IMG/VR virus record: IMGVR_UViG_3300022752_000027
Span: 32,001-96,000 of that record
Direction: 5' to 3' (one strand)
Origin: a virus
Length of the DNA stretch: 64,000 bases
In this document: piece by piece, positions 54,286 through 54,421 of the stretch
Layout: each line of letters starts with the position of its first letter
Position numbering within the stretch: the first letter of the stretch is position 1
The notes under the pieces: model-generated
What the model saw: the letters and a program-made list of their open reading frames with translations, nothing else
Told to the model about the DNA's origin: nothing
Databases searched by the model: none
Made by a program: the position numbers and the translations under genes

Positions 54286-54421
54286 ATATCCCCTCTGCAC
54301 TCAGTTGTAATACTAATACCTTTACTTGCCCGGATATTTATATCAAGGTCATCACGGAAGTCCGGTGTGATGGTATTACAACTGCTATCCCTTGGGAAGA
54401 TAGTTATGGTGCATTAAATAT
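54286..54421 (-). ncRNA. Twister self-cleaving ribozyme (type P1) with extended P5
   Basis: Minus strand reads AUAUU-UAA-UGCA-CC-AUAA-CUAUC-UUCCCAAGG-GAUAG-[P5 CAGUUGUAAUAC...GUAUUACAACUG]-AG-UGCA-GA-GGG-GAUAU. P1, P2, P4, P5 and both pseudoknots (CCC/GGG, CC/GG) can form. Confidence 0.85.

Follow-up and report, generated by a model that had tools for sequence, protein, structure and literature searches.

Within the 64,000-nucleotide (nt) window analysed here, DNA of an uncultured freshwater phage (IMG/VR record IMGVR_UViG_3300022752_000027, positions 32,001 to 96,000), the minus strand at 54421..54286 encodes a real, conserved RNA that is very probably a self-cleaving variant of the type-P1 twister ribozyme. 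Its fold and its conserved bases are established by comparing sequences of copies from other viral contigs; from that resemblance we infer the chemistry, a cut at U54416|A54415 and the effect of the cut. Direct reading of the strand finds P1, the cut-site triplet, P2, P4, L4, T1 and P5, and every helix and motif named by the original prediction, which was made from the letters alone, is present. When a P0-like hairpin directly upstream is counted, the element extends over about 54442..54286. Its parts, read 5' to 3' on the minus strand, are these.

54417..54421 (-): 5' strand of P1, AUAUU (A54421-U54417)
54414..54416 (-): cut-site triplet U54416 A54415 A54414, with the predicted scissile bond U54416/A54415; A54415 is the putative general acid
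54409..54413 (-): 5' strand of P2, UGCAC, 5 base pairs (bp) including C54409; the earlier reading had U54413-A54410 with U54299-A54296
54404..54408 (-): C54408 and the junction AUAA; C54408 is the putative partner of G54391 in the short pseudoknot T2
54385..54403 (-): P4 hairpin, CUAUC/GAUAG, C54403-C54399 with G54389-G54385
54398-54390 (-): L4 loop UUCCCAAGG, 9 nt, between the P4 strands
54302..54384 (-): P5, a perfect 12-bp stem (54384-54373 with 54313-54302), whose insert of 59 nt (54372-54314) is lineage-specific
54296..54301 (-): A54301 and the 3' strand of P2, GUGCA, from direct reading and covariation
54291..54295 (-): G54295 (putative general base), A54294 and G54293-G54291, the T1 3' strand, which pairs with C54394-C54396
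C54396-C54394 with G54293-G54291 (-): T1, three pairs between L4 and the 3' segment
54286..54290 (-): 3' strand of P1, GAUAU (G54290-U54286)

P1 consists of 5 pairs, 1 of them U.G. The minimum-free-energy fold of 54430..54280 contains P2, P4 and P5 at -42.9 kcal/mol (z = -3.52), and none of 200 shuffles folded as well. No convincing minus-strand open reading frame (ORF) crosses the element, which is flanked by a 60-amino-acid ORF (ending at 54526) and a 32-amino-acid ORF (starting at 54145); since the length of P5 ranges from 16 to 179 nt between copies, the element is not coding. The roles proposed for A54415 and G54295 are assigned by homology to the twister as described in PMC5408937 and PMC11662667, and the predicted cut at U54416|A54415 falls at the position that twister homology would dictate.

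Four degenerate core patterns matched 63, 60, 47 and 2 stretches of IMG/VR viral contigs. The first, in which 18 core bases were fixed and P2 and P4 left free, returned the 63; the further three added 16 loci, so that the four together place the core in 79 distinct viral-contig loci besides the window. In 64/64 rows (window included) the five bases that follow the loop paired with the five that precede it, exactly in 60 and with one G.U in 4, and beyond P4 the rows continued with a P5 stem, then A-G, the P2 complement and GAGGG. Alignment A1 comprised 56 distinct copies taken by regular expression, with a P5 of 15-110 nt, limited P2 and G-A-GGG letters and the junction ATAA. It left out the long-P5 copies L004, L007, L008, L017, L021, L025, L032, L038, L040, L058, L063, L065 and L073, the broken copy L072, exact duplicates and the later-added L078 and L079; most omitted copies were included in alignment A3, and both alignments were selected by sequence rules.

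A covariance model built from the 56 distinct copies, holding nested helices only with the pseudoknot T1 outside it, gave 92 matches at E<=0.01 and 88 at E<=1e-6 on the 79-locus set (735 kb searched). Ten contigs carried two to four copies each, and the genome of this phage carried one, the element itself. A pattern scan of 185,579 bacterial and archaeal species genomes yielded 1 match, in a metagenome-assembled genome (contig of 4.6 kb), which is no clue to the host. By blastn, neither the 380-nt tract nor a typical member had a true match in 50,697 deposited (GenBank) phage records, and at that sensitivity cultured GenBank phages are without the family. The family is thus almost phage-only, large and absent from Rfam. 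A literature search on twister with phage, crAss or tRNA found no description of it, the candidate lists of PMC11662667 lying outside that search.

The original prediction proposed looking for covariation in related phages, and P1, P2, P4, P5 and T1 all covary. Among the 56 distinct copies 91.2% of cells were paired, against 81.0% in shuffles, and both sides had changed in 25 of 32 pairs, a number reached by 0/500 shuffles; partners slid by 1-3 columns were 30-50% paired. The 88 model matches gave 91.6% versus 79.0% (0/500 shuffles as high), with both-side changes in 28/33 pairs and slid controls at 30-49%. P2 was 100% paired, with both-side changes in 4/5 pairs across the 88 matches; for P4 the values were 99.6-100% of cells and 5/5 pairs, and the P5 stem had changed on both sides in 11/12 pairs. 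P1 cells were paired in 72%, the inner two pairs each being formed in 51/56 copies with 4-5 pair types. Contiguous P1 pairs averaged 3.5, against 1.9 with partners swapped between copies, and 26/56 copies had at least four. The innermost P1 pair was U.G in 27 copies and G.U pairs were many overall; since these are A.C mismatches on the opposite strand, the fold has been selected on RNA of the minus strand.

The strongest single covariation test is T1, which was absent from search pattern and model alike and shows two different compensatory double changes in the pseudoknot. When a pattern left the three L4 bases and their loop partners free, L4 CCC went with GGG, CCA with UGG and CAC with GUG. 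Across the 88 copies T1 was CCC/GGG in 66, CCA/UGG in 12 and CAC/GUG in 4, hence fully complementary in 82/88; the 6 in which it was broken or gapped were all low-scoring or truncated. The two A's flanking T1 were kept in 87/88 and 85/88 copies. One copy has C, a replacement tolerated in a published assay (PMC11662667, in which T1 is named PK2). A fortuitous likeness of AT-rich intergenic DNA to twister has in its favour that Rfam holds no twister match; it is refuted by the 63 viral-contig matches for the 18-base core and by covariation in 56 and in 88 copies, the fold z of -3.52 also speaks against it, and we give it practically no weight.

The short pseudoknot T2 is drawn in the original prediction as CC/GG; in the published twister it joins two bulged L4 bases to a conserved GC in L2. 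C54408-G54391 was C-G in 85/86 scorable copies, with no covariation. C54409 covaried with G54300 (C-G 74, U-A 10, U.G 2) and is therefore likelier to be a fifth P2 pair than a second T2 pair, so that the drawing needs revision; P2 here is probably 5 bp, unlike that of the consensus twister. That would leave C54408-G54391 as the one secure T2 pair, and T2 may consist of it alone. A CC/GG T2 could still form, because the C-to-U change allows a wobble with G54390; C54409-G54390 remains pairable in the copies, as C-G or U.G. The junction after C54408 varies in divergent copies (AAU, AUU, AAA, ACAA).

Base conservation across the copies, together with covariation, supports a fold of the twister type that retains the catalytic bases. 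Of the two A's following the predicted scissile bond, the first was kept in 87/88 copies and the second in 88/88; U at -1 was kept in 85/88. A pattern that left the cut-site triplet open gave 43 distinct copies, with UAA (41), CAA (1) or AAA (1), the A-A being constant. The G after the P2 3' strand, G54295, was G in 84/88, A in 2 and a gap in 2, and the adjoining A was kept in 85/88; the L4 positions, covarying T1 positions excepted, kept their letter in 86-87/88. This agrees with the published description of twister, in which the A is highly conserved, the U less so and the G invariant (PMC5408937). It also agrees with a 2024 assay, where a change of either A abolished activity and a change of the G reduced it, and every base at -1 worked (PMC11662667).

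The element shares much with the type-P1 twister (RF03160), a class defined by Roth et al. 2014 and reviewed in PMC5408937 and PMC6154101. Features in common, as given in these accounts, are P1, P2 and P4; U|A-A at the P1/P2 junction; a G directly after the P2 3' strand; a T1 of three Watson-Crick pairs beside an A opposite an A; an L4 with UCCCAAG; and optional P0 and P5 in the published places. It differs in having no P3, found in 78% of annotated twisters, and in always having P5, found in 1% (PMC6154101). In the published twister a practically invariant G-C closes L4, together with a trans U.A pair (PMC5408937); U54397 and A54392 are available for the latter. The candidate pair U54398/G54390 was U.G in 84, C-G in 1 and U-A in 1 of 86 scorable copies, and the pair closing the P4 stem varied (C-G 73, U-A 7, A-U 5, G-C 1).

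Several observations weigh against a self-cleaving twister. The original prediction had named a missing covariance-model match as one of two grounds for giving it up, and no Rfam twister model (RF03160, RF03154, RF02684) matched at any threshold tried. The whole window at the gathering score had four transfer RNA (tRNA) matches only, pieces of 501, 156 and 42 nt had no twister match at E<=10, RF03160 had none at E<=10 on the whole 123,735-bp phage genome, and L003, a natural member with a minimal 19-nt P5, went unmatched by Rfam at E<=10; since L003 was missed too, we attribute the failure to core differences and not to the large insert. The short pseudoknot is C/CC with G/GG, against a conserved two-pair GC:GC in the consensus, L4 has 9 nt because of an additional U on its 5' side, and its closing pair would be U54398/G54390 where the consensus has a near-invariant G-C (PMC5408937 for all three). 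The two-pair short pseudoknot was the most sensitive element in the 2024 assay (PMC11662667), which keeps our confidence from being higher. P1 is weak, with 0-2 contiguous pairs in 20/56 copies, and the copies are related, so that sequence counts overstate independent events. Two further points of this kind, concerning the P0-like hairpin and the RNA libraries, are given with those subjects below. At the gathering score 15 related loci also lacked a twister match, and Rfam matches at E 1.5-9 (microRNA, small nucleolar RNA, U6 and DUF2693 families) were taken as chance.

These differences suit an RNA that is twister-like and conserved and no longer cuts itself, its scaffold being kept as a stabilising 5' or 3' structure or as a protein-binding element. 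The changes fall at positions called highly conserved in PMC5408937 (the short-pseudoknot partner and the L4 closure), every Rfam twister model fails on the element and on L003, and hairpins with the same stem and no twister persist in these phages beside decayed copies, which suggests that the hairpin alone may be useful. Against such a loss of activity, unpaired bases that serve catalysis only were kept in 84-88 of 88 copies even where helices changed, the published assay tolerated deviations of these kinds (PMC11662667), and decayed copies (L052 1293-1442, L072) lose exactly the catalytic bases; we consider it unlikely. The 2024 assay covered about 2600 natural twisters, about 94% of those tested being active. 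Imperfect P1, P2 and P4 were tolerated in it, as were pseudoknot pairs that were compensated or wobble and insertions at position 1 of L4, and its P5-bearing twisters, a small sample, all cleaved >0.8 (PMC11662667). P1 is described as dispensable for cleavage (PMC6154101; PMC11662667).

The large P5 insert was proposed in the original prediction as a cargo or regulatory domain, which the comparison does not bear out: the insert is hypervariable, it is swapped between near-identical flanks and it folds near the shuffled expectation. P5 domains (76 distinct) measured 16-179 nt, with a median of 80.5 and a closing stem of mostly 10-13 bp; L003 and L024:2532-2606 are natural members with only a short loop. 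Against shuffles the inserts had a mean z of -0.88, with 6/67 below -2. The three inner helices that had been drawn are present in the sequence of the window insert, which is no stabler than shuffled sequence (z = -0.71). The window and L025 are 98% identical over 54466-54374 and 91% over 54319-54274, with inserts that are unrelated and differ in length. We conclude that the P5 insert is hypervariable filler, that a conserved domain serving as cargo or sensor lacks support, and that the long P5 stem probably acts as a clamp joining the P2 strands.

Other uses of P5 were considered. As an antisense RNA the insert is unremarkable, its longest match elsewhere in the 123.7-kb genome being 12 nt, against 11-15 nt for shuffled inserts. 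In divergent, active-looking copies the arm sequence changes freely with the pairing kept, which argues against the stem as a sequence-specific protein handle; arm conservation therefore looks like recent descent or inter-copy exchange, and not like a sequence requirement. The P5 stem may resemble the ends of some clustered regularly interspaced short palindromic repeats (CRISPR), a likeness that we take as a lead only.

The P5 arm sequence recurs in nearby hairpins without a twister, one of which lies directly downstream.

54182..54282 (-): second long hairpin, with an 11-bp closing stem nearly identical in sequence to the P5 stem and no twister core

Copies that lack the twister or have decayed also occur in relatives, in places as arrays of 3-5, and the decayed ones keep P2 and P5 without P4, the L4 loop or GAGGG. 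Such recurrence raises the question of a DNA-level repeat, that is, recombination or a mobile cassette with conserved arms and an incidental RNA fold. Multiple copies per contig with decayed ones beside them, the insert swap between the 98% and 91% identical flanks of the window and L025, and the arm sequence in neighbouring hairpins all fit this. It could explain the spread of copies, but not the upkeep of the fold: compensatory changes in the pseudoknot and five helices, with many G.U pairs, reflect selection on a one-strand RNA, and in divergent copies the P5 arms vary freely yet stay paired. We regard it as very improbable. It is also conceivable, if rather doubtful, that the released RNA is itself the product: about 126 nt or more with a 5'-OH and a hypervariable P5 loop on a conserved stem, forming with the stem-sharing twister-less hairpins an array of exchangeable cassettes, for example anti-host decoys or guides, in which the arms would serve as folding clamp and recombination handles.

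A further hairpin adjoins the putative ribozyme on its 5' side.

54422..54442 (-): P0-like hairpin directly 5' of P1, with pairs G54440-C54424, G54439-C54425, G54438-C54426 and G54442-C54422

About 50 nt upstream of the element are conserved among 6 close relatives, and RNAalifold on these 6 gave the hairpin, which ends right at P1, is confined to that subgroup and occupies the place of the twister's optional P0. One compensatory change, G-C to A-U, occurs in a pair of mutually similar sequences, L010 and L063. The 3' strand of the hairpin, CCCUC, is also complementary to GAGGG, and the two were therefore paired in the short fold of 54430..54280; given more upstream sequence, CCCUC pairs within the P0-like hairpin, and we rejected the alternative pairing. 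The hairpin counts against efficient cleavage, since P0 hairpins lowered it to 0.40 from 0.85 in the 2024 assay, an effect that its authors ascribed to alternative conformations (PMC11662667).

RNA-library data belong with the same cautions, as they consist of assembled contigs, which do not resolve RNA ends and possibly include DNA. Four of 24 listed runs were examined, each of the 24 holding a 0.07-0.15 share of the stretch; parts of 54000-54800 left uncovered by the contigs are uninformative. In four riverine or freshwater RNA libraries (four studies), contigs spanned 54284/54290 to 54393/54399 with 2-3 differences and the lineage insert included, and contigs of two RNA libraries covered the second hairpin at 54182..54282. 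The lineage is thus present in those libraries; neither transcription nor cleavage follows. Contigs from three studies stopped about 4-6 letters past 54399. We rejected these stops as an RNA end: they lie 12 nt from the predicted cut and about 30 letters into a core common to many phages, where a k-mer assembly would be expected to break.

One 71-nt contig (run X5, record 13; depth 2.3) joined 54289-54318 to 54374-54414, so that the 3' end of the ribozyme was joined at, or one base after, the predicted 5' end of the product. A circular or permuted RNA was considered and set aside, a tandem copy in a relative being the simpler reading; L026 and L082 show such an arrangement, with a DNA-encoded twister followed immediately by another module with the same 5' letters. 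No match to the RtcB or RNA-ligase families was found in this phage.

If the element works as known twisters do, its action would most probably run as follows. During RNA synthesis the P0-like hairpin, the P1 5' strand, the cut site, the P2 5' strand and the P4/L4 hairpin would fold first. The 83-nt P5 domain would come next, its 12-bp stem drawing the two P2 strands together. The 3' segment G-A-GGG would emerge last and pair with L4 CCC to form T1, completing the active site, where G54295 would be the general base and A54415 the general acid. A break at U54416/A54415 would leave a 2',3'-cyclic phosphate on U54416 and a 5'-OH on A54415. The upstream small-gene mRNA, ending in the P0 hairpin, would be severed from a downstream RNA that starts with the compact ribozyme body and continues with the second hairpin, four small ORFs and the tRNA genes, and the two parts of the transcript could then differ in stability. 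That such cuts give polycistronic parts different stabilities has been proposed in PMC6765202.

The genomic context is compatible with this scheme. The element lies among small ORFs of the minus strand, a run followed further on by three or four tRNA genes (53355-52797). It is plausible that the cut would process the transcript running on to the tRNAs, as originally proposed. ARAGORN found tRNAs in 15 of 56 loci, all on the strand of the element and with at least one downstream in 15/15. In L031 (about 1925) and L013 (about 3311) a tRNA starts a few bases past the P1 3' strand, and in L044 (about 670) a tRNA-like sequence does. This placement fits a cut that parts upstream mRNA from a downstream RNA cluster, but conserved gene order among related phages would look identical. 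A tRNA-like gene of 103 nt in window 53112-53226 (-) scored 37.4 bits with the Rfam tRNA model and has about 34 nt in the position of the anticodon arm; ARAGORN made no call on it. It is conserved in 11 twister-bearing loci, always downstream and on the same strand; L057 has about six copies, and in L047 the identity is 94%. ARAGORN also reported tmRNA-like genes with tag peptides on the strand of the ribozyme at L003 71-403 (-) and L019 887-1274 (-). A calcineurin-like metallophosphoesterase (51560-52564, +) adjoins the tRNA cluster of the window.

Upstream, the strong terminator-like hairpin at 55527-55498 is a possible marker of where the transcription unit begins. A sigma-70 promoter scan was uninformative (10 sites versus 13.4 in shuffles). 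Pfam and PHROGs returned nothing for the small proteins adjoining the element. Two paralogous small proteins at 54822-55238 and 55535-55966 (-), with similar acidic ...DPFK tails and without a match in Pfam or PHROGs, have the hairpin 55498-55527 between them, and a PhoH-like ATPase (57458-58156, -) lies upstream of the small-gene run. Genes further off encode PhoH, a helicase, a family-B DNA polymerase and a primase; the best deposited relatives of the polymerase are 32-35% identical, Cellulophaga phage phi14:2 among them.

Three other ribozyme classes invite comparison. Twister-sister (RF02681) is described as having some likeness to twister in sequence and secondary structure and an A just 3' of the cut, but as being cut on the opposite strand and showing no sign of pseudoknots (PMC5408937); T1 covaries here, and the fold is therefore twister-like and not sister-like. 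RF02681 had no Rfam match at E<=10 for pieces of the element. Theta ribozymes, which are HDV-like, are likewise small self-cleaving RNAs of uncultured phages tied to tRNA genes (PMC10879173); they are a different class, and the tRNA link here is loose, as the element precedes the tRNAs on their strand by anything from 0 to about 5 kb. Hatchet (RF02678) is a phage-borne self-cleaving ribozyme too, but its fold is unrelated, and Rfam at the gathering score found none in this window. A 2026 preprint describes Hatchet as largely confined to Crassvirales. A Hatchet (78.1 bits, cut-off 51) lies at L001 5635-5767 (+), on a 100-kb viral contig, about 1 kb upstream of the twister-like element and on the same strand.

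If cleavage is confirmed, the family would be a large phage-specific branch of twisters unseen by current covariance models, and surveys of ribozymes in viromes would undercount twisters. The family would then also reveal which 'invariant' twister features vary in nature, namely the short pseudoknot, the closure of L4 and the length of P2. With copies upstream of tRNA and small-gene clusters, often several per genome beside decayed ones, these phages offer a concrete system for asking what role self-cleaving ribozymes play in phage transcripts.

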